Source: Polyangiales bacterium (GTDB lineage Bacteria > Myxococcota_A > Polyangia > Polyangiales > Ga0077539). From it: a stretch of 64,000 bases of DNA. This document shows, piece by piece, positions 3,379-50,630 of the stretch. Location of the stretch: positions 114,892-178,891 of the forward strand of contig JAXLYJ010000005.1 of assembly GCA_046351515.1 (NCBI GenBank). Direction: 5' to 3'. Both the position numbers and the translations under genes were made by a program. Each line of letters starts with the position of its first letter. Within the stretch, counting starts at the first letter, position 1. A model generated the notes under the pieces. The model made no database searches. It was not told where the DNA came from and saw only the letters and a list, made by a program, of their open reading frames with translations.

Positions 3379-4227
3379 TCACGACGCGGCGGCGTCGGGC
3401 GGGAGCTCGTCAGCGTGGTGATCGTCGCGTTCATCGCCGGGTACATAGCGCGCGACTTGGATGTGTGGCGAGAGCTCGAGGATGCCGAGCGCGGCGAAGG
3501 CGCGGATGACGTACCAGGTGGGGTCGATCTCCCACGAACGGGCCGCGAAATTCGGGGCCATTCCGAACTTGTGGTGGTTGTTCTGAAAGAGCTCTCCGCC
3601 CGTGAGAAAGTCGAACGGAAGGGTGTTCACGCTGCGGTCGCGCGTCGCGAAGTTGCGGTAGCCGTACTTGTGTCCGCACCAGTTGACGATCGCGCCGTGC
3701 ACCGGGCCCATGAGGTAGTGGATCGGCAGCAGCGCGAACCACGCCCAGTGCGGCGCGAACTTGATGTACACGAGCGTGTAGAGCACGCCCCACGCGATGC
3801 GCGTGATCCACGCGTCGCCGATGGCGTCGAGAAGAGGCCACGAGGGAGTGTCTCCTTCGAAGCGCTTCTCGGTGCGGATCGAGCCCGAGAGCAGGCCCTG
3901 ATAGCGCTGCTTGGTCTTCCACATCATCGCGAAGAGGTTCGGGTACGTGTGGGGCGAGTGCGGGTCGCGATCGCCGTCGCTGAACGCGTGGTGCTCGCGG
4001 TGCAGAAGCGCGTACGCGCGAGGGTTCAGGTACGAGCTGCCCTGAAACACGAACGTGGCGAAGTGAAAGACGCGCTCCCAAAAGGGGCTCAGCTTGAACA
4101 TTCCGTGCGCCGCGTATCGGTGCAGATAGAACGTCTGAAAGAACACCGACAGCGCCCAGTGGGCGATGAAGAACGCAATGATCACGAACACGGCAACCTC
4201 GCTTCGAGCGCGCCGCTCGCTCGTCAC
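3379..4227 (-). CDS. membrane fatty-acid desaturase (acyl-CoA/acyl-lipid delta-9 desaturase family)
   Basis: His boxes HRYAAH, HREHH and HNNHH, with hydrophobic TM segments. Confidence 0.85.
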   Translation of the reverse strand: MTSERRARSEVAVFVIIAFFIAHWALSVFFQTFYLHRYAAHGMFKLSPFWERVFHFATFVFQGSSYLNPRAYALLHREHHAFSDGDRDPHSPHTYPNLFAMMWKTKQRYQGLLSGSIRTEKRFEGDTPSWPLLDAIGDAWITRIAWGVLYTLVYIKFAPHWAWFALLPIHYLMGPVHGAIVNWCGHKYGYRNFATRDRSVNTLPFDFLTGGELFQNNHHKFGMAPNFAARSWEIDPTWYVIRAFAALGILELSPHIQVARYVPGDERDDHHADELPPDAAAS

Positions 4228-6269: not shown

Positions 6270-6914
6270 TCAGCGCGCCGCCAGGCCCAGTCTCGCGCGG
6301 CAGCGATTGCAGAGCCGCCCGCTGCTCTGGTCGATCGTGCGCACCGTGCCTCGCGCGTCGGTCATCAGGCAGCGCGTGTCGGGACAGTGGTCGAGCCCGA
6401 GCGTGTGACCCACCTCGTGAACGCACGTCGTCACCATGCGAAAGCGCACCTGCGCTTCGTCGCGCGCGTTGCGACGACAGCGAAACATCGAGATCACGCA
6501 CGCAGGCCCCGGCAGATCGCCCAGCCCCAGGATGCCCCAGTCGTACACGCCATGCGCGCTCGTCGAGATGTCGACCTCGGTCACGCCCAAGATGCGATTG
6601 ACCGGAGCGCGCACGCGGCCTCGAAGAAAATCGAGCAGACGCTCGGCGCGATACCGTCGATTGCGCGCGTAGTACGCGGCGCGCGGCAGGTCCACGGAGC
6701 TCTCTCGCTGCACCGCCACGCCGAACTCGGCCGTCAGTCCGTTGGCGATCTGGTCGAACAGCGCCGAGTCGAACGAGCCGAGCGGCTGCACGGCGACCCG
6801 CGCGTCCTGCGGGCGAATCGCCATCGACTCGTACGATTGTGAGCGCGCGATCGACGGCGTCGCGACGAGCGCGAGCGACCCGAGCGCCGCGCGGCGAGAG
6901 AGCGTGATGGCCAT
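6270..6914 (-). CDS. archaemetzincin-like zinc metalloprotease
   Basis: HEVGHTLGLDHCPDTRCLM...CNRC matches the archaemetzincin HExxHxxGxxHC...C...CxxC signature. 214 aa, signal-like N-terminus MAITLSRRAALGSLALVATPSIA. Confidence 0.7.
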   Translation of the reverse strand: MAITLSRRAALGSLALVATPSIARSQSYESMAIRPQDARVAVQPLGSFDSALFDQIANGLTAEFGVAVQRESSVDLPRAAYYARNRRYRAERLLDFLRGRVRAPVNRILGVTEVDISTSAHGVYDWGILGLGDLPGPACVISMFRCRRNARDEAQVRFRMVTTCVHEVGHTLGLDHCPDTRCLMTDARGTVRTIDQSSGRLCNRCRARLGLAAR

Positions 6915-6981
6915 GGGCTGCCGCTGAGCGTACCGCGTTCGGAACGCGCATCCCCGAACCGCCGCCCCCCACGACGTCACG

Positions 6982-7539
6982 GTGGAGGCTCTCTGCATCA
7001 ACCTATGCCGCGCGCAGTGCTTCGGCGATGCAGCGCTCCGTGGGGCCGTCGTGCGCGAGCCTCGCGCTGGCGCTACCATCGGAAGCGCTGTGCCTGTGGA
7101 CAACGATGCGCGCGCTGAGGCGCGGACCCTGTTGCGAGCGCTGTGGACGCGCACTCGCATTCCGATGAACCGAGGCAACGCGCTCGCGTACGGCGAGCTC
7201 ATCCTCGGGCTCGCTCCCGATCGCCTTCGCCCCGCGATCGAAGAGCTCGTCGCAGACGGAACGGTGATCGCCGACGGCGCCGCGGACGACGCGCTGCTTC
7301 TGTGGCCCGGCGAGAACCGCCCGTCGCTCGGGCCCAAGACCGTGCAAGAAGCGCAGACCCTCGAGCGGCTGAACCAAGAGGCGTCCGTTCCGGTCCCGAC
7401 CAAGACGCCGCAGTGGATGCTCGCGAAGCGCGAGCCCGATCCCGTGGTGATCGACAAGAAGAGCGTCGTGGCCTCGGCGCGCTCTCGTTTCTCTTCGGCC
7501 CGCTCGGTTGGCTCTACGCCGCGCCGCTCAAAGACGTAG
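6982..7539 (+). CDS. hypothetical protein (soluble domain); likely continues by -1 frameshift into a 2-TM segment (to about 7723)
   Basis: Protein-like 185 aa ORF. Frame 0 from about 7443 encodes the hydrophobic segment GALSFLFGPLGWLYAAPLKDVAVGFFAFSAITTLAALLLPGSLATLVGALASFGSGVLGMSY with no start codon of its own. Confidence 0.35.
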   Translation: MEALCINLCRAQCFGDAALRGAVVREPRAGATIGSAVPVDNDARAEARTLLRALWTRTRIPMNRGNALAYGELILGLAPDRLRPAIEELVADGTVIADGAADDALLLWPGENRPSLGPKTVQEAQTLERLNQEASVPVPTKTPQWMLAKREPDPVVIDKKSVVASARSRFSSARSVGSTPRRSKT

Positions 7540-7787
7540 CCGTGGGCTTCTTCGCGTTCAGCGCGATCACCACCCTCGCGGCTCTTCTGCTGCCTGGATC
7601 GCTCGCGACCCTGGTGGGCGCGCTCGCCTCGTTCGGCTCGGGCGTGCTCGGGATGTCCTACGCGCACCAGTACAACAAGCGCGGAAAGCGCACGCGCTGC
7701 TCGACGCCAAGACCGGCGAGTGAGCGCGCACGGCGGCTGAGAGCGCTCGCCCACACAATCAAGCGGTCAGAGAAAATACCGTCGATT

Positions 7788-8941
7788 TCACCGTTCGCAT
7801 CGCTCGCGGATGACCGCTGCGATCCGGCGCCACAGCGCGTTGAAGTGGTCCGTGGCGAACCCCGAGTTCGACCGCATGAAGGTCATCCCCGCGCCGTCGT
7901 AATGGCCGATCACGTCGAGGTGGTCCGCCGAAATGAGCCCCGCCGCGCGGCCGTCGATCGTCTGCGACCACGCGGGGACGATCCCGTCGTTCGACCGCGC
8001 TTCGTCCGCGCGCAGGCCGTTGGGGCGGCCGAGGATCCACGGGCCGACCGGCCAGCGGGCGATCGAGGGGGCGTTCCGCGCGTGAGTCGTTGCGTGAGCA
8101 GAAAGAGCGCGCGACGCACGGGATCGCGCGCGATCGCGGTGAGGTCCGCGAGCGCGCGGCCCGGCTGCGGAGCGACGGTGACGAAGCAGTGCAAGTGCTT
8201 GTGATCGTGGCCGCTGATCGCTCGGTCGAGGTCGGTCATCGCCGCCACCGTCAGGTCGCCCACGAGCCGATGATCGCGAACGACCTCGTCGAGAAAGCGC
8301 CGAATATCCCTGGCCGTCTGCGTGTCGACGTCCGCGAGCCTCGCGATGAGCTCGGCCTCCGGCGTGGACTTGCGCACGATGATCTCTTCGATCGTCTCGA
8401 TGATGGCGCCGACGTGCCCGGCGACCGTGAGCGCGTCGCGCGAGGCGATGATGCTCCCGAGCCAAAGACCGGGGATCGCGACGGCCATCGTGGGAGACAG
8501 GTTCGACGCGAGCGGCGTCCCGCGGTGCGGCGCGGACACGGTGAGCACCGAGCGAACTCGGTCGATCACCGCGCGGCGCTGTGACGCCTCTGGAGCTCCG
8601 GGCCAGAGATAGCGCGGATTGGTGACGAGCCGCGCGTCCACGCCGCCGGTCGAGTGCCCCACGAGGTGCACGTCGGTGATGGGCTGTCCGTCGATCCCGT
8701 CGCGCAGGATCGCCTCGATCGCGCGATACAACGACGCAGCGCGAGCGCTGAGCGGGCCGGTCGGCGGCGGCTGGTGAACGATCACCGGCGTGCGCGCGCC
8801 GAGCTCTGTGCGAAGCACCGAACGCGCGAACTTCACGTACTCGATGATGGGCGCGCCCGTTGGACCAAACGATCCGAAGCCGAAGAAGCCAGGGACGAAG
8901 ACGATCGCGTGTGTGGGTGTCATTGCGTGGGCATCACTCAT
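7788..8941 (-). CDS. alpha/beta-hydrolase lipase/esterase (GHSTGG nucleophile elbow); apparent 1-nt frameshift near 8075-8095
   Basis: N-terminal part in the frame of ORF 7910..8941 (VFVPGFFGF...HLVGHSTGGVDARL). C-terminal part with catalytic Asp/His (NDGIVP, DHLDVIGH) in the frame of ORF 7788..8465. The junction lies at a G5/C5 run (8077-8081). Confidence 0.6.
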
Positions 8942-8997
8942 GGCGTGCGCAGGGATGGAGGGGCGCGCGAGAGGCTGAGCGAAACTGCGCGCGAGGT

Positions 8998-10074
8998 ATG
9001 TTACGAGAGGACCGAGGTGTCTCTGTGATCGGCGTGGTGATCAACCCGTTTTCTCGGCGCAATCGTGGACAGACCGGACTGAAGCGCAGGCTCGAAAAGC
9101 TGCTCGGCTCGCACGGACGAGTGGTCGAGACCTACAGCACGGACGCGATCATCCCCGCGCTCAAGCAATTCGCAGACGAGGGGCGAAAGTACTGGGTGGC
9201 CGACGGCGGTGACGGCGCGCTGCACTGGATGATCAACGGCGCTGCACGATACTTCGGGCCGCAGCAGGCGACGAAGATCGCGCGCTACGTTCCCACCGGA
9301 GGCGGCTCGGTGGACTTCGTCGCCAAAGGGCTCGGGATCGATCGCGATCCGAGCGCCGTGCTCGCGCGGCTGGTGGCCACGATCTCCAAGGGCGGCGAGC
9401 CCAAGTACGTCCCGCTGCGCACGATGGAGTGCGACGGGACGCAGCTGCTCTACGGTGATTCGCGCGAGCACTTTCGGCGGTACGCGTTCGCGACGGCCTT
9501 CGCGGGGTACGGCGCGAATTTCTTCGGCCCGTTGCACGAGGGCAGCGGAGAGAAATCGCCCACGCGCATCGCGGGGTTGATGGGCCTCGCGTTCGGCGCC
9601 GCCGCGGGGCGCGCGGTGTTTCAAGGGCCCGCCGCGCGGTTCAAGCCGAAGACGCTGGCCAAGGCCGAGTACGATTTCTTGCATCCCTTGCGGGCCGAAG
9701 TGCTGATCGACGGAGAGCCGCAGCGCGACCGCAACGGCGCCGTGCTCGAGTCGTTCACCGTGCTGCAGTGCGCGGCGCTGCCGCTGTCGATCGCGGGGAT
9801 TCTGCGGGTGTTTCCGCTGGCCAACAACGAGCAGATGCACGTGCACGCAGGGATGGTCTCGGGCGTCGAGGCCGCCCGCGTCTGGCCGTCGCTCATGACC
9901 GGAAAGCGCGTGCAACACATGCTCCCCGACGCGTACGACGGTCCCGCGAAGCAGATCGAGATTCGCTGCCTGCACGGCGACGAGATGAACCCCGTTCTCG
10001 ATGGCGAGGTGTTCTTTCGGCTCCAATCGCTGACGGCGCGGCTCGGGCCGGTGTTCGAAATGGCCGTTCCGTAG
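8998..10074 (+). CDS. diacylglycerol-kinase catalytic-domain lipid kinase (YegS/BmrU-like)
   Basis: GGDGALH motif and DAGK_cat-like N-terminus VIGVVINPFSRRNRG. Start at ATG 8998 or GTG 9020. The upstream Arg-rich extension is probably not translated. Confidence 0.7.
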   Translation: MLREDRGVSVIGVVINPFSRRNRGQTGLKRRLEKLLGSHGRVVETYSTDAIIPALKQFADEGRKYWVADGGDGALHWMINGAARYFGPQQATKIARYVPTGGGSVDFVAKGLGIDRDPSAVLARLVATISKGGEPKYVPLRTMECDGTQLLYGDSREHFRRYAFATAFAGYGANFFGPLHEGSGEKSPTRIAGLMGLAFGAAAGRAVFQGPAARFKPKTLAKAEYDFLHPLRAEVLIDGEPQRDRNGAVLESFTVLQCAALPLSIAGILRVFPLANNEQMHVHAGMVSGVEAARVWPSLMTGKRVQHMLPDAYDGPAKQIEIRCLHGDEMNPVLDGEVFFRLQSLTARLGPVFEMAVP

Positions 10075-14834: not shown

Positions 14835-15494
14835 ATGACCACTGAGCACTACAAGCTGTACAGCTACTGGCGGTCGAGCGCGTCGTGGCGCGTTCGATGG
14901 GCGCTCGCGCACAAGGGGATCGCGTTCGACAAGGTGATCGTCAACCTGCTGAAGAGCGAGCAGCGCGCGGACGAGCATCGCGGGCGCAATCCGATCGGGC
15001 ACGTTCCTGCGCTCGAAGTGACGCCGGGGAGGTTTCTGGCCGAGAGCGTGGCGATCATCGAGTGGCTCGAAGAGACGCACCCCGAGCCGCGGCTGTACCC
15101 GACGGACCCGTGGGCGAAGGCGCGCGTGCGACAGGTGGTCGAGCTCGTCAACGCGGGCATTCAGCCGCTGCAGAACCTCGTGGTGCTCGACAAGGTCTCG
15201 AGCGACCCCGAGGCGAAGAAGGCCTGGGCACACGATTTCAACTTGCGTGGTATTTCAGCGCTCGAATCGCTGCTGAAGTCGATCGATCACGAGCTCGGCG
15301 AGGGGCGCTTCGCCGTGGGCGACGCGCTCAGCGCGGCGGACTTGTTCGTGGTGCCGCAGGTGTATTCGGCGCGCAGGTTCGGCGTGGACGTGGCGCCCTT
15401 CGCGCGGGTGCTGCGCGCAGAGGCGAGCGCCCTCGCGACGCCGCACGCCGAGGGCGCGAAGCCCGAGTCGCAGCCGGACGCTCCGAAGAGCTGA
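14835..15494 (+). CDS. maiA: maleylacetoacetate isomerase (glutathione S-transferase zeta class)
   Basis: N-terminal YSYWRSSASWRVRWALAHKGI is typical of GST-zeta/MAAI. 219 aa. Confidence 0.8.
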   Translation: MTTEHYKLYSYWRSSASWRVRWALAHKGIAFDKVIVNLLKSEQRADEHRGRNPIGHVPALEVTPGRFLAESVAIIEWLEETHPEPRLYPTDPWAKARVRQVVELVNAGIQPLQNLVVLDKVSSDPEAKKAWAHDFNLRGISALESLLKSIDHELGEGRFAVGDALSAADLFVVPQVYSARRFGVDVAPFARVLRAEASALATPHAEGAKPESQPDAPKS

Positions 15495-15524
15495 GCGGAT
15501 CGCGTGCGGCCGCGCGGGTGAGGG

Positions 15525-16032
15525 CCCATCGGCGCTGCCAATTCGCAGGCCCCACCCGCGCTGCCGCGCGCCGGTTCGCAGGCCCCCACCCGCGCTACCG
15601 CGCGCCCGTCTTCGCAGCCCCCACCCGCGCTACCGCGCGCCCCGCCCCGCAGAGCGAGGGCGGCGGCTCTGCATTGGGAAAACAGCGACGGAATCGAGTT
15701 CGTTGATCGCACGGAGACCTTGCGCTGCAAGGTCTCTTCGGTGCGCGAAGCGGCTCGCGACACGGCGCAACACGACGCAACGCGAACGCTCGGCGCAAAC
15801 CGTGATCAGCGGAGCCGCTTCGCTCCGTGAGTGGTCGCTATCGAGGCCATCGAAGCCCTTGCAGAGCAAGGGTTCCCTGCGATCAACGCCGTCAACTCCG
15901 TCACTGTTTTCCCAATGCAGAGCCGCCGCCCTCGCTATGCGGGGGCGGGGCGCGCGGCAGCGCGGGTGGGGGCTGCGAACCGGCAGCGCGGGTGGGGGCT
16001 GCGAACCGGCAGCGCGGGTGAAGGCTTCGTCG
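15525..16032. repeat. roughly 500 bp nested inverted-repeat element (about 160 bp arms containing about 33 bp tandem sub-repeats, about 215 bp internally palindromic core); MITE-like or structured-RNA-like
   Basis: Left arm 15528-15685 (3 copies of TTCGCAGGCCCCCACCCGCGCTACCGCGCGCC..., then CTGCATTGGGAAAACAG) is the reverse complement of right arm 15904-16030 (CTGTTTTCCCAATGCAG...GGCAGCGCGGGTGGGGGCTGCGAA x2). The core has further palindromes (CCTTGCGCTGCAAGG, CCCTTGCAGAGCAAGGG, GAAGCGGCTC/GAGCCGCTTC). Mirror-image ORFs appear on both strands. Confidence 0.8.
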
Positions 16033-16124
16033 CTTCGCTCGCTCGCACCAGCGCCGGTGGCGCGATTACTCACTGGGCAGCGCCGCTCGGGACCGCGCGT
16101 CCCCTCGTCCCCTCGTTGCGCTCG

Positions 16125-17695
16125 TCAGCGCTTCTTCGCTGCCTTGCGCACGATCAACGCGAGCGCTGCGAGCGCGCTCAAAGAGCCCAGCGCGAGCTTG
16201 CTCTTCGTCGCAGGAGTGACCTTGGGTTGAACTCTGCGCGGGCGCTGCACGGCGTTGCTCGCGGCGGGCGCGAGCGTCCCTGCGGGCCGACCGCGAATCC
16301 CGAGCTCGGCCACGGTCGTGCTCACCACGCGCGGAAGCTCGACGGCCGCGCCCGTGCGCGTCGCGAGGTCGAGCGCGGGGCGCGTGGGCTGCGCTTGAGT
16401 CCCGCTCGGAGGGCCGCCCCAAACGCCGCGTCGCGGGTTTTGGCAGGTGATGGGACCGGTCCAAGCGTGGCGGATCGCGTAGCGCGCTTGAAAGTTGTTT
16501 CCTCCGTACTGCGCGGGCTGAGCGCCGGTCTCGATCGCGTGCGTCTGCGGGTCGATCACGTGCTCGCGTCCGCCGACGACCGCGCCTGCCTCGCGAAACA
16601 CGAGGTCGGCGTTGAGCGACTGCGCGTTGTAGCGCGTGTGCATGCGCGTGACGGTCATGTTGTTCGCGAACTGCATGTTCGACCCGATCACGTCGGCGCC
16701 GAGCGTCGCGAGGTCCGCGGGCTGCAATGGAGGCGTGGGGCACGGGTCGCACGAGCTCGTGGCCCACGAGTACTCCGTGACCACGGCGCGGCCGTTCATG
16801 CGCTCGAGCGTGCGATCGAAGAGCGTGGTGTAAAACGACCCGAAGCCCTCGCGCACCGAGTCAGTGACGTCGAGGTTGGTGGGGATGAAGACGTTGGGAT
16901 AGTTGGCCACTTCGAAGCGCGAGGTCGGATGCAAGACGTACACGATGAGGTCTTGCTTCTCTGGCGCGTTGAGCAGCCCCAGGCGAACGGGGAGTCGAAA
17001 GTCCTGCGTGTCGTAGTGAAACCGCAGCGGAGAGAGCCTCGCGCCCCCGTCGGGCCTGCGCTGCACGCGGTGAATGTCCACGCGCGCGACGAAGAACTTC
17101 ATCCCCTCGCGAATGTACGGCGCGAGCGCGCCGCAGCGCCGTTCGGAACGTTGTAGCGGTTCTGTCTCAGCCACGTCTCGAGCCCAGACGACTGCGTCGC
17201 GGACAAGATCAGGATTTGATACTCGCCCACGGTGAATCGCGCTTCGATGCGAACGCCGAGGTCTTGCTCGCGCATGCGAACGCTCGCCCCAGTTGCGGTC
17301 GGCATCGCGCGGGACGTTGGGGCGTCGGCATATCCGTAGGTCGGTTGAAAACAGGGGTCCTGCTCCCAGTACTCGACGAGCCTCGGCGCGGTCAGCGACT
17401 CGATCCGCGAGAACACGTCGTGCGGCAGCGTTCGCACGTTGGCTTGCTGAAGCACGATGGGGACGGGGACCACCATCGCGAAGTCCTGCGGCGGCCCGTC
17501 GTAGTCGTTGCTCATCGTGAGCACCGTGCGCTGGCCGTGGCGCATGAGCGCGACGCGCGTCGCTTTGTTCGTGAGCTGCTCGCTCGATCCCGAGACGTAG
17601 AAGCCGCAGAACGCGTCGGCGCTTCGCGCGTGGCCGAGCGCGGCGCTCGCGAGCGCGAGGGAGAGTGCGAGCGCGGTCGTGGTCGAGCGAGTCAC
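16125..17695 (-). CDS. DUF2330-like secreted/membrane-anchored protein; apparent 1-nt frameshift near 17120-17150
   Basis: N-terminal part in the frame of ORF 17099..18109 (GTG 17695 preceded by GGAGGA; signal peptide TTTALALSLALASAALG; CGFYVSGSS...). C-terminal part in the frame of ORF 16125..17174, ending with a TM anchor plus KAAKKR. The frames differ by 1 nt inside GGCGCTGCGGCGCGCTCGCG. Confidence 0.55.
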
Positions 17696-17721
17696 GGTGA
17701 GTCCTCCGTCGATGAGTGGGT

Positions 17722-19629
17722 TTAGCGGGCGCGGAGCTTGCGCGCGTCGCCGATACGAATCGTGACCTTCTTCACGTCGAAGTACTCGGCGAGAGGAATG
17801 GTCCATTTGCGCGACGCGCCGGTGATCGTCTTGAAACCCTGCGCGTCGATCGATCCTTGGGCCTCGATCCAGGCCACGAGCTTCTTTTCGAGCTCGAGCA
17901 TGGACGCCGCGTCCGCGTAGAACTCGGGCGAAATCTTCACGATGTCCCCGCGCGCCACGAGGCGGTCGAGCGCCGGCGCGAGGGCCTTGGGCTCGACGCG
18001 CAGCGACTGCGCGACCTCGTCGACGCGCGGAGGCATCACGCCCGCGCTGCAAATCGCCTTGCGAACGGGCTCGAGGTGCGGGACGGCGTCGGGGTCCTTC
18101 GGCTTCCATCCGGCGCGGGCGTAGACGTCTTGGTCGCGGCTCACCTTGCGATCGGCGACGAGCTTGGCGAGCAGGGCGTCCATCAGCGCGTCGTCCCCGA
18201 GGGCTTTGAGCGCGCTGCGCGTGAGCCCGCGCGAGGCGGGGTTGGCAGAGTGCTCGGCGGAGAGCGACTGAAGAATCTTCTGCGTCACCGGCGCCGCTGC
18301 GCTCGCGCTCACCCAGCGCTCTCGCGTGATCTGCACGAGCCCCGCGGTGGCCATCGCCGCCTCGTCGAGCGTCGCTCCGACGCGCGCCGAGAGCTGCTGG
18401 GGAGAGAGCCCTTTGAGCCCCGCGGCGTCGGACTCGGCGCGCAGTCGAGCGTCGCGATCGTCTGCGTTTTCAGCGACGGATTTCGCTCGCGCGAGCGCGG
18501 TGTCGCGCTTCTTCACGCGCTCGGCGACCGGACGAATCACCACGCCGCCGCCGAGCGTCGAGCCGAAGCCCGCGAGCGAGGGCGGGCCGCGCAGGACGAA
18601 GCGCTCGTTGGGTCGAAGCGCGACGGCGCTCTCCGTGGTGATGCGCGCGATGGCCTTCGAGCCCGGCTCGAGCGACTCGCCTTCGAGCAGCGCGACCGCG
18701 CAGAGCGTGTGCGCGGCGCCGACGGCGAGCTCGAGCTTGCTGCGGCGTCCGAGCTCGTGACGCGTGCTCGCGAGCAGCGAGACCTCGGCGTCGAAGGCGT
18801 AGGTGAGCGCGACCTCTCCTTCGCGCATGAGCCACGCGCCGCGCGGGACCTCGCCGCTCTCGATGCCGGCGATGTTGACCGCGACGCGCGTCCCCGCCGA
18901 GGCCTGTGTCACAGAATCGCCGTGAATTTGCAGGGCGCGCACGCGCACCTCGCGCGCTTCGTCGTCGAGTCCCACCGGCGCGACCACGAGCGAGTCGCCC
19001 TCGCCAACGGCGCCGGAGACGAGCGTTCCGGTCACGACCGTGCCGAAGCCCTTGCGAACGAAGACGCGGTCGATCGGCAAGAGCGTCGGGCCGTCCGAGG
19101 CGCGCGGCGCGACCGCTGCGCGGGCGAGCGCTGCGCGAAGCTCGTCGAGTCCGCGGCCGGTGTGCGCGCTCACCGCGACGATCTCCGCGTTCTGCAAGAA
19201 CGTCCCCGCCACGGTCTCGCGCACCTCTTCGATCGCGAGCTCGAGCACGTCGTCCGCGGCGAGGTCGGACTTGCTGAGCGCGATCACTCCCGCGCGAACG
19301 CCGACCAGCTCTGCCACCGCGAGGTGCTCTCGGGTCTGCGGCATCACGCCTTCGTTCGCCGCGACGACGAGCATGCAGAGGTCGAGGCCTCCGGCGCCGG
19401 CGATCATCGCGCGGATAAACCTCTCGTGGCCGGGCATGTCGACGATCGCGGCGCGTCGACCGCCGGGCAGCTCGAGGTGCGCGAAACCGAGCTCGATGGT
19501 GATTCCGCGGGATTTTTCTTCGGGCAAACGATCGGTGTCGACGCCGGTGAGCGCCTTCACGAGAGCGGTCTTGCCGTGATCGATGTGTCCTGCGACGCCG
19601 ATCACGAGGTCCGAGGGACGAGCGGTCAT
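17722..19629 (-). CDS. selB: selenocysteine-specific translation elongation factor SelB
   Basis: GTP-binding motifs GHIDHGKT and DMPGHERF. Long C-terminal winged-helix SECIS-binding extension. 636 aa from [14 protein letters not shown]. Confidence 0.8.
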
Positions 19630-30177: not shown

Positions 30178-30575
30178 CGCCCCGATGACGTGATGGTTGA
30201 TGCAGAGAGCATCAACTCGCGCCGCGCCAGTGGTTCGGCGCCGCGGCGTACAAGCGCTGTGCGCGCCGTGCGATCGAGCAGCGGAGTGAGCGGCTACCGA
30301 GCTGTGTTGGACAAAGGGGGAGGAACCAACAACGGGGAGGGAGGGACGATGGATGCTCTCGGTAGCCGCTCGCTTCGTCGCTCGATTTGCAGGGCGAATC
30401 GTCGGCGTTGCTTTCACTCTGGCACGCGCGGGCGAAGCGTCAAGTCGAGAGGGAAGCATTCTGCTCTCTCGATGGGTTACAACGGTGCGCGCGTTCGGTC
30501 GTCGTCCGCTGCGAGGGCAGCGATGATGGGCGAGCGCGGATCGCAGCGCCTCTCAGACTCTCAAGGAATCTCCTC

Positions 30576-46817: not shown

Positions 46818-48197
46818 TCACTCTGCAACGATGCGAAACTCGACGCGCCGATTCTGCGCGCGCGCGTCGCGGAGTGCGCGTCCGCGAATGCCGTCCACCG
46901 GTCGCAGCGGTCGCGTCTCGCCGAAGCCCTGCGCGCGAAGGCGCGAGGCCTCCACGCCGTGCGCGTGGATGTACTCCACGACGCTCCACGCGCGGCGCTG
47001 CGAGAGGTTCTGGTTGCGCTCGTCGTTGCCGACGTCGTCGGTGTGTCCCTCGACGCTCACGCGACGGATCTCGGGCGACGCGCGAATCGCGTCCACCACT
47101 GCGTCGAGGACTGGAAAGCTCCTGCGCAAAATCGTGTCGCGGTTGGTGGCGAAGTACACGGGCGCGAGGATCTGGATCATCCCGTTCTGCACGCGAACGA
47201 GCCCAGGGCAGCCGTTGCGATTGGGGTCGGGGCTCGGAGAGCCAGGCTGATCGGGGCAGTGATCGGTCGCGTCGGGGACCGAGTCGTTGTCGCGATCGGC
47301 GATCGGGCACCCAGGCCGCGCGGGGTCCGGGCGCTCTCCTTGCGGAACGTCCCTGCACTGGTCCTGCGCGTTGAGCACGGTGTCGCTGTCCGCGTCGCCG
47401 TCGGGGCATCCGCGACGCGCGGGATCGGGGTGCTCGCCCTGCGGCTCGTTCACGCACTGGTCGTCGGGATCGAGCACGCCGTCGCGATCGGCGTCGCCGA
47501 TGGGGCATCCGCGACGCGCGGGATCGGGCCGCGCGCCTTGCGGAACCGTCGGGCACTGATCATCGGGGTCCATCACCGTGTCGCCGTCGGTGTCCGTCGG
47601 CTGCGTCGGTTGCGGAACCACCGGCGCCGCTTCTGCCGCAGGAACTCTCAGCGAAAACGAGACGCCCGCGCTCCAGTACATCGCGTCCTGCGGGTGCAGG
47701 TTCTGCGGGTCCTGCGTGACGTGATGATAGCGAGCGAACGGGCCGATCCCGAGAAACCGCGCCGCTTGAAACTCGAAGCCGAGCCCCGCGTCCAGGCCGA
47801 ACCGGCGATCGTCGCCGGTGAGAAAGAAGCCGAAGTTGCCATCGACCCAGAGGCGACCGACGCGGCCGATCATGGGCTCGAGTCGCAGCCCTCCTTGCAG
47901 CGCGAGCGTGCGACCCATCTCGAGGTTCGCGCGCGAGCTGAAGAAGAATCCGTTGCTCAGCGAGAGCTGCACCGAGAGCAGGTCGATGATGTTGAACGCG
48001 AGCCGCGCGTTCGCTTGAACGTGCGCCGAGTCGTAGCCGAGCACCGTGCGCTGGTGCTCGGAGATCATCGTTCCTGCGCCGAGCTCGCCGCGCAGGGCGA
48101 AGCGTTGAAGCACTTGCGCGTGCGCGCTGTGCGCAGAGAAGACAGCAGCCAGGAGCACCGGCGCTGCGACAGAGGCCTTGCGAATGGAAGAAGACAT
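46818..48197 (-). CDS. OmpA-family outer membrane protein with thrombospondin type-3 (TSP3) Ca-binding repeats
   Basis: Signal peptide. Beta-barrel-like N-terminus. Repeated DxDxDGxxDxxDxCP motifs. C-terminal OmpA domain (FATNRDTI...NQNLSQRRA). Confidence 0.85.
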   Translation of the reverse strand: MSSSIRKASVAAPVLLAAVFSAHSAHAQVLQRFALRGELGAGTMISEHQRTVLGYDSAHVQANARLAFNIIDLLSVQLSLSNGFFFSSRANLEMGRTLALQGGLRLEPMIGRVGRLWVDGNFGFFLTGDDRRFGLDAGLGFEFQAARFLGIGPFARYHHVTQDPQNLHPQDAMYWSAGVSFSLRVPAAEAAPVVPQPTQPTDTDGDTVMDPDDQCPTVPQGARPDPARRGCPIGDADRDGVLDPDDQCVNEPQGEHPDPARRGCPDGDADSDTVLNAQDQCRDVPQGERPDPARPGCPIADRDNDSVPDATDHCPDQPGSPSPDPNRNGCPGLVRVQNGMIQILAPVYFATNRDTILRRSFPVLDAVVDAIRASPEIRRVSVEGHTDDVGNDERNQNLSQRRAWSVVEYIHAHGVEASRLRAQGFGETRPLRPVDGIRGRALRDARAQNRRVEFRIVAE

Positions 48198-48218: not shown

Positions 48219-50630
48219 TCAGAAAGTGAACGTGCCGAGGTACGACGGCGACGATGTGGTGCACGTTTGATTTCCGGTGCTCGCGGTGTACGTCCGCGTG
48301 AACGTGCGGACCGTGCTGGCGCCGCGCACGACGTTGACCGTCACCGTGTTGCTCCCGGTGATCGAGTACGGAACCGCGCACACCAGATACGGACCCGACG
48401 CCGCTCCCGTGGACCAGAACACGTTCTCGGGGCCCGTTCCCGTCGTGTCGTCGCGGTCCAGCGTCCCGCCGCACGCCGTGCGATTCGAGTAGTAGATCTC
48501 CGTCCCGCACGGCGGAACAATGTGCAAATCGACGTCCCCCGCGGTCGTCCACGTCGCCGTGAACCGCAGCTGTCCCGTCCCGATGCACGCGCCCATCACG
48601 CACGTTTGATCCACGGCGCACGTGCGCCCGCACGCGCCGCAGTTGCGCACGTCGTTCTGCGAGTCCACGCACGTCGTGCCGCACAGGATCTGCCCCGCAG
48701 GGCACTGGCACACGCCCGTCACGCACGACTGTCCTGCCAGGCACGCGCGTCCGCACGCGCCGCAGTTGCGCACGTCCGTCGCCGTCGTCGTGCACACGCC
48801 CGCGCAGAGCGACTGCCCCGCGGGGCACTGGCACGTCCCGCCGACGCACGACTGTCCGCCAGAGCAAACGTTGCCGCACATCCCGCAGTTCGAGTTGTTG
48901 CTCGCGAGCGTCACTTCGCAGCCGTTAGCCACGTTGCGATCGCAGTCCGCGAAGCCCGCGTTGCACGCGCCGATCCCGCACATCCCCACGGAGCAGCCCG
49001 AGCTCGCGTTGGGCAACGACGCGCACACGCGCCCGCACGCGCCGCAGTTGCGCGGGTCGTTCGCGATGTTGGTCTCACACCCGTCCGCGGGGTTCATGTT
49101 GCAGTCCGCGAAGCCCGCGTTGCACGCGCCGATGCCGCAGGTGCCGCCCATGCATCCCGCGGTCGCGTTCGCCGGACGCGCGCACGGAGCGTTGCACGCG
49201 CCGCAGTGATTCACGTTGGTGTCCGTGTTGACCTCGCACCCGTCCGCGGAGTTCATGTTGCAGTCCGCCAGCGGCCTCGCGCACATGCCCACGCCGCACA
49301 CGCCCATGTTGCACGCCGCGCCTCCGCCCGGCGGAACAGGGCAAGAGTTTCCGCAGCGCCCGCAGTGATCGATGTCCGTGTTGATGTTGGTCTCGCACCC
49401 GTTCAGCGGGTTTCCGTCGCAGTCCGAGAAGCCCGGATTGCAGCGCACCAATCGACACGCGCCCGAAGTGCAGTCGCTCGTCGCGTTGGCCAGGTTGCAC
49501 AGCCGTCCGCACGCGCCGCAGTGATTGACGCTCGTGCGCGTGTCGACCTCGCAGCCGTCCGCCGCGTTCATGTTGCAGTCCGCGAAGCCCGCGTTGCACG
49601 CGCCGATGCCGCACGTCCCGTTGCTGCAACCCGGCGTGCTGTTCGCGAGGATGCCGCACACGCGCGAGCAGCCGCCGCAGTTGTTGACGTCGCTGCGCGT
49701 GTTGACCTCGCAGCCGTTCGCGTCGTTGTTGTCGCAGTTGGCGAAGCCCATGTTGCACGCGGCGACGTTGCACACGCCCATCGCGCAGCCCGCCGTTCCG
49801 TTGGCGACCATGCACACGTTGCCGCAGCGACCGCAGCTGCTCACGGTGTTGCGAACGTCGACCTCGCACCCGTCGTTCGCGTTCATGTTGCAGTCGGCGA
49901 ACCCGTCGTTGCAGCGAAAGCCGCAGGCGCCATCGGCGCACGTCGCCGTCGCGTTCGCGGGCGCCGAGCAGGGGTTTCCGCAGCGACCGCAGTGGTTCAC
50001 GGACGACTGGGTGTCCGTCTCGCAGCCGTTCATCGCGTTGCTGTCGCAGTCACCGAAGCTGCCCGAGCACCGCCCGACCGCGCATCGGCCCATCGTGCAC
50101 GTGGGCTCGGCGTTGGGGACGTTGCACGCCATTCCGCAGCCGCCGCAGTTGGCTGGATTGGTGTTCGTGTCGATGCACGCGTCGGTGCAGCACATCTGCC
50201 CCATCGGGCACGGCTGCGTCGGAGAGCAGCCCGTCACGCAGCGATTGCCTCGACACAGATTGCCCGCGGGACAGTGCATGTCCGTCACGCAGACCACGCA
50301 CGTGTGCGTCATCAAGTTGCAGCGCGGCGTGTCTCCCGAGCACGCTTCGTCCCGCGAACATCCCGGCGCGCACTGCCCCGTGCGCGTGTCGCAGAACTGA
50401 TCGGCGCGGCACTGCATGTCCGACGTGCAGCCGGGGCGCGCGTCGGGCGGCATCGTCACGTCCGCTGCGTCCATGGACATCGTCGAGTCCATGTTGGACC
50501 CGCCGTCGTCTTCGATCGGGCCCCCGAGGACCGAGCGACCGACGGTGCAGCCAGTGGCAGTCGAGAGCAAAGCAACCGCGCATGCAGCGAACGCCGCGCT
50601 GCGCATTCGAATCAAGGGTCGAGGCATCAT
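48219..50630 (-). CDS. lipoprotein composed of about 10 Myxococcus-type cysteine-rich repeats
   Basis: Lipobox LSTATGC. Repeated roughly 43 aa module N-x-C-G-x-C-G-x-x-C-...-C-x-x-G-x-C-...-C-N-x-G-F-A-D-C-N-x-N-x-x-D-G-C-E. 803 aa. Confidence 0.8.
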   Translation of the reverse strand: MMPRPLIRMRSAAFAACAVALLSTATGCTVGRSVLGGPIEDDGGSNMDSTMSMDAADVTMPPDARPGCTSDMQCRADQFCDTRTGQCAPGCSRDEACSGDTPRCNLMTHTCVVCVTDMHCPAGNLCRGNRCVTGCSPTQPCPMGQMCCTDACIDTNTNPANCGGCGMACNVPNAEPTCTMGRCAVGRCSGSFGDCDSNAMNGCETDTQSSVNHCGRCGNPCSAPANATATCADGACGFRCNDGFADCNMNANDGCEVDVRNTVSSCGRCGNVCMVANGTAGCAMGVCNVAACNMGFANCDNNDANGCEVNTRSDVNNCGGCSRVCGILANSTPGCSNGTCGIGACNAGFADCNMNAADGCEVDTRTSVNHCGACGRLCNLANATSDCTSGACRLVRCNPGFSDCDGNPLNGCETNINTDIDHCGRCGNSCPVPPGGGAACNMGVCGVGMCARPLADCNMNSADGCEVNTDTNVNHCGACNAPCARPANATAGCMGGTCGIGACNAGFADCNMNPADGCETNIANDPRNCGACGRVCASLPNASSGCSVGMCGIGACNAGFADCDRNVANGCEVTLASNNSNCGMCGNVCSGGQSCVGGTCQCPAGQSLCAGVCTTTATDVRNCGACGRACLAGQSCVTGVCQCPAGQILCGTTCVDSQNDVRNCGACGRTCAVDQTCVMGACIGTGQLRFTATWTTAGDVDLHIVPPCGTEIYYSNRTACGGTLDRDDTTGTGPENVFWSTGAASGPYLVCAVPYSITGSNTVTVNVVRGASTVRTFTRTYTASTGNQTCTTSSPSYLGTFTF

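Follow-up and report, generated by a model that had tools for sequence, protein, structure and literature searches.

Quasipalindromes are reportedly corrected by template switching, a process said to have been described by Ripley in 1982. Here we describe an imperfect palindrome of ~480 bp in a stretch of 64,000 nt (contig JAXLYJ010000005.1, positions 114,892 to 178,891; hereafter the window) from a metagenome-assembled genome (MAG) of an uncultured soil member of the Polyangiales. The element is lineage-specific and non-coding, and it separates the 3′ ends of two convergent genes, maiA and a gene of the DUF2330 family, whose stop codons are separated by a spacer of 630 nt. Several described systems come close to it. 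Repetitive extragenic palindromic (REP) sequences may be arranged as doublets in inverted orientation, known as REPINs, whose spacers differ and yet still form hairpins (PMC3337134). Moreover, REP loci are documented as hot spots at which other DNA inserts (PMC1525189).

The element shares a number of features with miniature inverted-repeat transposable elements (MITEs) and foldback elements. It is shorter than 600 bp, contains no credible open reading frame (ORF), has long inverted ends that fold into one hairpin and is present or absent among close strains; moreover, it is flanked by a direct repeat that is single-copy at the empty site and it occupies a 'safe' intergenic location. Unlike those elements, however, it has one known copy, and no parent insertion sequence (IS) or transposase was found in the data searched. 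Its flanking repeat of 19 nt is far longer than usual, its subterminal repeats resemble the target and its two arm arrays differ in period. The resemblance to REPINs and bacterial interspersed mosaic elements (BIMEs) (PMC3337134, PMC3116915) lies in the extragenic position between convergent genes, in the combination of direct and inverted short units that together form a hairpin and in strain polymorphism at the locus. Here, in contrast, the units show barely any palindromic character and none was seen at another locus, the whole is about five times the size of an 89-bp REPIN with 300 nt of unique core, and no REP-associated tyrosine transposase (RAYT) was noticed near it. Quasipalindrome correction (as cited in PMC5941160) would leave similar traces, namely inverted copies of adjacent native sequence, patchy homogenisation of the arms (seen here as a 33-nt run), rapid changes at the edges and slippage. 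However, the events described involve tens of nt, whereas the present arms measure ~230 nt and ~130 nt of each has no local template. Lastly, the REP-type hot spots for IS elements (PMC1525189) are likewise palindromic extragenic sites struck repeatedly by different DNA in related genomes, although the occupants here are short non-coding palindromes rather than IS elements that encode a transposase, and there is no demonstrated REP family.

Anatomy of the palindrome and its absence from close relatives

The original prediction placed a palindrome of roughly 500 bp at 15520-16035, and this is borne out by both self-comparison and folding. In a blastn search of the region against the window, 15564-16017 aligned to its own reverse complement with 77.8% identity over 478 columns (E 2e-89), and the RNA fold of 15495-16065 reached -436.9 kcal/mol, compared with -295 +/- 7.8 in shuffled sequences (z -18). 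The inverted symmetry is far above chance expectation. Overall, the shape is that of a single long imperfect hairpin with its centre of symmetry near 15790 and arms of ~230 nt each. The longest ungapped arms are the left and right inner arms (15640-15735 and 15854-15949), each of 96 nt and 85% complementary to one another. Within them lies a 33-nt run that is identical between the arms (15653-15685 and 15904-15936), and this contains the 17-mer CTGCATTGGGAAAACAG, which has exactly two copies in the 64 kb, one on either strand (15669-15685 and 15904-15920). Each arm also folds, as DNA, into two local hairpins of 7-10 bp (~15642-15663 and 15714-15736 on the left; ~15856-15872 and 15924-15949 on the right), giving the palindrome its 'nested' aspect. 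A core of 215 bp had been proposed as a separate unit; instead, the palindrome runs through this core, and only ~55 nt (15757-15811) stay unpaired. In minimum free energy structures this apex is enclosed by a perfect apical stem of 12 nt (15745-15756 and 15812-15823), and it is this stem, together with the local hairpins, that represents the smaller inverted pairs noted previously. The fold of the plus strand contains 7 G-U pairs and that of the minus strand 12, a difference too small to indicate which strand is transcribed.

Tandem arrays are present in both arms, as had been predicted, but they are not built from a common unit of ~33 bp. The left-arm array (15542-15642, minus strand) comprises 2.9 copies with a period of 35 nt, as determined by Tandem Repeats Finder and a motif scan, whilst the right-arm array (15955-16032, plus strand) has a period of 26 nt. 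For the latter, Tandem Repeats Finder reports 2.5 copies over 15955-16020; the two full copies (15955-15980 and 15981-16006) are 100% identical and a third (16007-16032) matches at 77%. In the arm-to-arm alignment a 7-nt indel (ACCGCGC) recurs in every repeat unit. At the inverted ends, TTCGCAGGCCCCACCCGCGCTGCCG (15542-15566) is complementary to 15981-16005, with the arms ending ~16 nt short of the left boundary of the element and flush with the right one. The palindrome may extend weakly outwards, as 16076-16085 is a perfect 10-nt complement of 15530-15539 (p ~0.002, borderline). A continuous extension past the right direct repeat out to 16095 was not retained, its support being limited to this one complement.

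To define the element we compared the window with contigs encoding the closest maiA homologues, amounting to 219 kb of related loci. In contig L008 (JGI 3300044940), maiA is 96.5% identical at the nucleotide level (synonymous divergence, dS, 0.11) and is followed by a spacer of 56 nt, whilst in L015-L017 (three Logan samples) it is 95.9% identical (dS 0.155) and the spacer is 51 nt. Homology to L015 in blastn runs from maiA to 32 nt beyond its stop codon, ending at window position 15526. The native left part of the spacer is thus 15495-15526 (plus strand), of which 15498-15526 corresponds by orthology to the first part of the 51-nt spacer in L015-L017. The following 480 nt, at 15527-16006, have no counterpart in L008 or L015-L017, even though the flanking genes are 95-96% identical; this extra segment is the element proper. 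To its right, the remainder of the spacer (16026-16124, plus strand) begins with 26 nt that align to the rest of the L015 spacer (16026-16051) and ends with a stretch that aligns to the end of the L008 spacer (16096-16124), whilst 16052-16095 have no counterpart in either. Other relatives also have short spacers, of 10 nt in L018/L019 and L020 (maiA 88% and 93% identical, respectively) and of 3 nt in L011 (GCA_016793325.1; ~81% over the aligned part). None of the short spacers of relatives (3-56 nt) has significant structure. In L012-14 (maiA 83% identical) DUF2330 is absent and 18 nt lead to selB. Gene content at the maiA junction is therefore also variable, since L011 has two tandem DUF2330 paralogues 3′ of maiA (6655-10015) whereas in L012-14 selB follows maiA directly. 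A further contig, L003 (Logan SRR26348422), was assembled from short reads, is 99.8% identical to the window and evidently represents the same genome in a separate assembly. It spans the left junction and breaks off within the first repeat unit, after 44 nt of the insert. For the right junction, an exact look-up of the 349-aa DUF2330 ORF found no short-read contig on record.

The original prediction had suggested looking for flanking target-site duplications, and a flanking direct repeat was found. The left copy, CGGCCGCGCGGGTGAGGGC (15507-15525), and the right copy, CGGCAGCGCGGGTGAAGGC (16007-16025), both on the plus strand, are copies of a native 19-nt motif. They are identical at 17/19 positions, lie exactly 500 nt apart and flank the 480-nt segment, and the motif is single-copy in L015-L017. 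In local alignments, positions 1-27 of the L015 spacer correspond to window 15498-15526 and positions 8-46 to window 16007-16051. Because positions 8-27 thus align at both sides, a native stretch of ~19-20 nt that is found once in L015 is found twice in the window. Moreover, the arms hold five internal copies of the motif, three of them minus-sense (15548-15566, 15582-15600 and 15617-15635) and two plus-sense (at 15955 and 15981). A scan of the whole window with a degenerate form of the motif returned 7 matches, all inside the maiA/DUF2330 spacer, against 0.9 expected by chance, and in the related loci the motif occurs at the orthologous position only. The best arm unit matches the L015 spacer at 22/26 positions (~85%), with a score of 32 compared with a maximum of 30 for ~290 random 630-nt segments of the window. 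In addition, CGCGCGGCAG is common to L015 and the internal units and is absent from the window's own left motif copy. At position 15 of the motif, both flanking copies carry A (GTGA) whilst all internal units carry G (GTGG); on this basis the flanking copies are sisters of one another, with the internal units grouped apart from them. Such a split would agree with duplication of a native target. We also considered a Campbell-type (attP x attB) integration via one unit, which would explain the likeness between unit and target; it is disfavoured by the same difference between GTGA and GTGG.

The two arms differ by 14.6% in their best block (Jukes-Cantor 0.16) and by ~22% overall, values as high as or higher than the synonymous divergence that separates the window from its element-free relatives (0.11-0.155). 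Arms born of a perfect local duplication after the split from these relatives would be expected to diverge less, and the palindrome would therefore either have been imperfect on arrival or be older and lost in the relatives.

Unrelated palindromes in the same spacer

The maiA/DUF2330 spacer is a hotspot for unrelated, fast-changing long palindromes, each with unequal arm arrays. Two further types occur in contigs L021-L024 and L027-L030, which belong to the same 90% maiA cluster as the window. In L021-L024 (three JGI samples and one Logan sample) the spacer is 317 nt long (3649-3965 in L021) and palindromic, with a fold z of -12.8. Its AT-richer 28-nt unit, CGGGGACGGTGTTCAAAAGTTCAAGAAC, is present four times, as two direct copies on the left that lie 89 nt apart and two inverted copies on the right that lie 48 nt apart, with partial units at both ends. 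The spacer of L027 (GCA_013298625.1) measures 286 nt (3649-3934) and has 57-nt arms that are 79% complementary (fold z -6.8). The palindrome of L027 recurs in L028-L030 with 96% identity over 266 nt, in flanks that are 98-98.7% identical to those of L027; in L028 the spacer reaches 338 nt (3649-3986). L027 and L028 differ in the outer left arm alone, which comprises the first 21 and 72 nt after the maiA stop codon, respectively. The version in L027 extends the palindrome, whereas that in L028 is a ~37-nt tandem duplication, and the outer pairing of L027 is lost in L028.

The three types of palindrome show no significant mutual similarity, with local alignment scores at or below the null. Homology through a GCGGCAGCG-like motif was entertained and dropped, as it was not significant against a null of random window segments. 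Between L021 and L027 the flanks are ~96% identical whereas the spacers are entirely different. There are thus at least five states of this spacer (3-10 nt, 51-56 nt and three kinds of palindrome, mutually unrelated and 286-630 nt long) among lineages whose flanking genes are 86-99% identical. Several Logan short-read contigs end within the first repeat unit, namely L003 at 1667, L025 at 1593 and L026 at 1591, the last two breaking at the 28-nt unit. Short-read assemblies break at such repeats and therefore these palindromes are systematically missing, truncated or under-represented in metagenome databases and the protein sets derived from them, such that negative database searches weigh little.

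Coding potential, transcription signals and neighbouring genes

That no ORF explains the element holds true. The ORFs of the 480 nt are Arg-rich, out-of-frame artefacts with neither a Pfam domain nor a homologue, and a single protein match (P0121) was rejected as limited to a low-complexity stretch outside the palindrome, in the rightmost part of the spacer and antisense to where DUF2330 ends. Rfam searches at permissive E-values with the window element and the palindromes of relatives gave only sub-threshold matches to hairpins resembling microRNA precursors, which we regard as chance matches because any hairpin yields such look-alikes. Across 15200-16400, no sigma-70 promoter was found, nor was any intrinsic terminator consensus on either strand, and on reading the sequence no U-tract was seen adjoining the ~230-bp stem. 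A replication origin or terminus was discounted, there being no GC-skew switch near the element. The original prediction had listed a large structured non-coding RNA (ncRNA) among its candidates. This candidate is not supported, given the lack of an Rfam match, the absence of the element from relatives that are 95-96% identical and the presence of non-homologous sequences at the same site in other lineages; the element is not a conserved RNA gene.

The flanking genes had been named correctly. maiA (14835-15494, plus strand; stop codon TGA at 15492-15494) encodes a maleylacetoacetate isomerase of the glutathione S-transferase fold, with the Pfam domains GST_N and GST_C. Two NCBI entries identical to this protein are labelled 'MAG: maleylacetoacetate isomerase [Polyangiales bacterium]', and a homologue with 97% identity is annotated as the same enzyme; further homologues come from a 'Myxococcales' MAG (86% identity) and Minicystis (63%). 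The DUF2330 gene, on the minus strand, is broken into two ORFs that both match Pfam DUF2330, a C-terminal part at 16125-17174 (stop codon 16125-16127) and an N-terminal part at 17099-18109. As shown by tblastn and alignment to the intact 530-aa gene of L008, the break is caused by a 1-nt deletion near 17128. This deletion lies outside any homopolymer, and both a real pseudogene and an assembly indel are possible.

Window G+C is 69%. Elsewhere in the window there is one further notable hairpin, at 30273-30386, with 29-nt arms that are 86% complementary and a 56-nt loop; it ends right before an ORF starting at 30387. Otherwise, no long inverted repeats were found in the 64-kb window or in the flanks of the relatives. 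Within large ORFs, 47291-47567 and 48618-49913 hold long tandem repeats (periods 99, 123 and 159 nt; 73-79% matches) that probably code for a repeat protein. In L008, a 107-aa Y1_Tnp fragment (PF01797, IS200/IS605-type) is found at 570-893, directly upstream of a hybrid histidine kinase; the corresponding position of the window is occupied by a DAGK_cat gene (8860-10074), without the Y1_Tnp fragment. This was the only Y1_Tnp seen, and no RAYT gene was noticed near the element, although the full window proteome was not scanned for one.

Origin of the palindrome

We tentatively favour a history in which foreign palindromic DNA was inserted in a MITE-like manner at this hotspot and was later remodelled by slippage and template switching, an explanation we put forward as the leading one without holding it to be established. 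Under this scheme, foreign DNA that was already palindromic would have entered a short native spacer, in the way that a MITE or foldback element is mobilised in trans. Insertion would have duplicated the 19-nt native motif, which now lies on both sides of the element. Replication slippage would then have built the tandem arrays of unequal period in the arms, and template switching between arms and flanks would have copied the native motif into the arms. We infer a gain rather than a loss, a foreign origin of the core and mobilisation by a transposase. The split-target signature suggests insertion, as does the complete exchange of spacer sequence that sets L021 apart from L027. Moreover, ~130 nt of the half-core have no detectable source in the window or the related loci, and this, together with the 15-22% divergence of the arms, would fit better with arrival as an imperfect palindrome than with a perfect local duplication after the split. 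Local remodelling is ongoing, as seen in the identical 26-nt units on the right, the 7-nt indel in each unit and the outer arm of L027 and L028. A non-autonomous transposable element had been one of the original candidates, and that idea is partly supported, with agreement in presence or absence among relatives, the 19-nt flanking repeat, the inverted ends, the size of ~480 bp and the lack of a credible ORF; what does not sit well with it is the resemblance of the internal repeats to the native target.

A number of observations weigh against this history. A target duplication of 19 nt is far longer than most bacterial transposons produce, and the likeness of the internal units to the native motif of element-free relatives is not what a simple foreign MITE would predict. 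The single motif of L015 could equally be a deletion scar, so that the direction of change, gain or loss, is not proven. Furthermore, no second copy of the element was found in the 64-kb window, the part of the source genome that could be searched, or in the 219 kb of related loci. GTDB representative genomes and JGI metagenomes, scanned for exact occurrences of the 19-mer CTCTGCATTGGGAAAACAG, gave single chance matches of ~20 nt only, which came from unrelated taxa (Mariprofundaceae, Bacteroidales MAGs and others), covered the searched stretch alone and had no inverted partner. Viral contigs scanned with the unit or 28-mer, plasmids searched by blastn with each of the three palindromes and phages searched likewise with the window element returned nothing or GC-rich chance matches. 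Searches of large protein collections with spurious ORFs (two from the window element and one from the L021 type) found no relevant match. Lastly, no partner transposase was seen, and nothing with the same ends as the element was found in the window, the related loci, plasmids, phages or viral contigs.

The main rival is an origin in situ, which we consider possible but rather doubtful. Here the palindrome would have grown from the native spacer by inverted duplication through template switching, by slippage and by arm-to-arm correction, perhaps as an old allele lost in relatives via direct-repeat deletion. Such a loss is plausible, as deletion between the direct repeats that flank the palindrome would leave precisely the single motif of L015. 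The arm units are homologous to the native motif, and this homology includes CGCGCGGCAG, which lies outside the flanking repeat; all 7 motif copies of the 64 kb are in one spacer, and the element has no other known copy. The arms have expanded independently, with two units identical, and the outer arm of L027 and L028 was remodelled at a flank divergence of 1-2%. Template switching is, moreover, established as a maker and corrector of inverted repeats (PMC5941160), and the presence of three unrelated palindromes at one site points to a tendency of this locus to form them. Against growth in situ, however, stand the ~130 nt per half-core, including an AT-richer 17-mer, that have no local source, and the wholly different spacers of L021 and L027 despite ~96% identical flanks, which are hard to obtain via local duplication and point mutation alone. 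The 15-22% divergence of the arms would in addition demand that the palindrome either be old and have been lost at least twice or have been imperfect from the start. Insertion and growth in place are not fully exclusive, as they overlap in part, and remodelling in place holds under either history. An improbable third account takes the 19-25-nt unit as the REP of this lineage, with the mosaic spread by a RAYT-type tyrosine transposase. The element is extragenic and between convergent genes, both orientations of the unit jointly form the hairpin, the locus is hypervariable across strains and the Y1_Tnp fragment of L008 lies 5 kb upstream. Nevertheless, the genome-wide REP-like repeat that had been proposed is not supported by the motif scan, in which 7/7 matches of the 64-kb window fell in one spacer and none at non-orthologous positions in the 219 kb. 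The 35-nt and 26-nt units have only 5-bp stems (z -1.5 and -2.0) and are thus weakly palindromic, the element has five times the length of a REPIN (89 bp, PMC3337134), no RAYT was noticed nearby and the Y1_Tnp of L008 is a 107-aa fragment with no window counterpart at that position.

It could also be argued that the hairpin is kept by selection, as a bidirectional terminator or insulator or as a structured ncRNA, with lineages having gained different sequences for the same structural job. A hairpin does recur at the same site in three lineages, the palindrome covers nearly the whole stop-to-stop spacer in all three long-spacer types, and the 33-nt run is identical in both arms amid diverged neighbouring sequence. 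Yet close and distant relatives manage with 3-56 nt lacking significant structure, L028 has lost outer pairing that is present in L027, there is no clear G-U asymmetry between strands and the scans gave no U-tract terminator, promoter motif or Rfam family; we judge a selected function quite improbable. An assembly artefact, in which a fold-back or chimeric long-read error made a false inverted duplication, is scarcely credible. The source contig is long (490,825 nt) and thus possibly long-read based, and the neighbouring DUF2330 gene has a 1-nt indel, but artefacts are near-perfect, whereas the arms are 78-85% identical and have different repeat periods. Moreover, the independent short-read contig L003 spans the left junction, and analogous palindromes are found in separate assemblies of other lineages (JGI, NCBI and Logan).

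Taken together, the most fitting label for the element is that of an unclassified palindromic insertion, of MITE-like or foldback type, in a hypervariable convergent spacer. Its consequences for the cell are likely incidental. Read-through transcripts of both genes would bear a very stable 3′ hairpin, a possible barrier or RNase target, and the DNA of the palindrome would tend towards cruciform formation and deletion. As a single element it matters little, being strain-specific and non-coding with no sign of conserved function. It is ordinary in kind and moderately interesting, the interest coming from the hotspot and from arm repeats derived from native sequence. The locus is more useful than the element, as it offers a compact natural series in which to study how long palindromes of bacteria originate, expand and disappear. 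A more speculative idea, and on balance an unlikely one, is that this spacer is a dedicated site where long palindromes repeatedly arise or land, as either undescribed site-preferring non-coding hairpin elements with target-mimicking subterminal repeats or de novo palindromes growing outwards by template switching. Both versions would be compatible with the three unrelated palindromes at this site and with the native-derived repeats of the arms. If the latter were true, such growth could represent an early stage of MITE or REPIN evolution.

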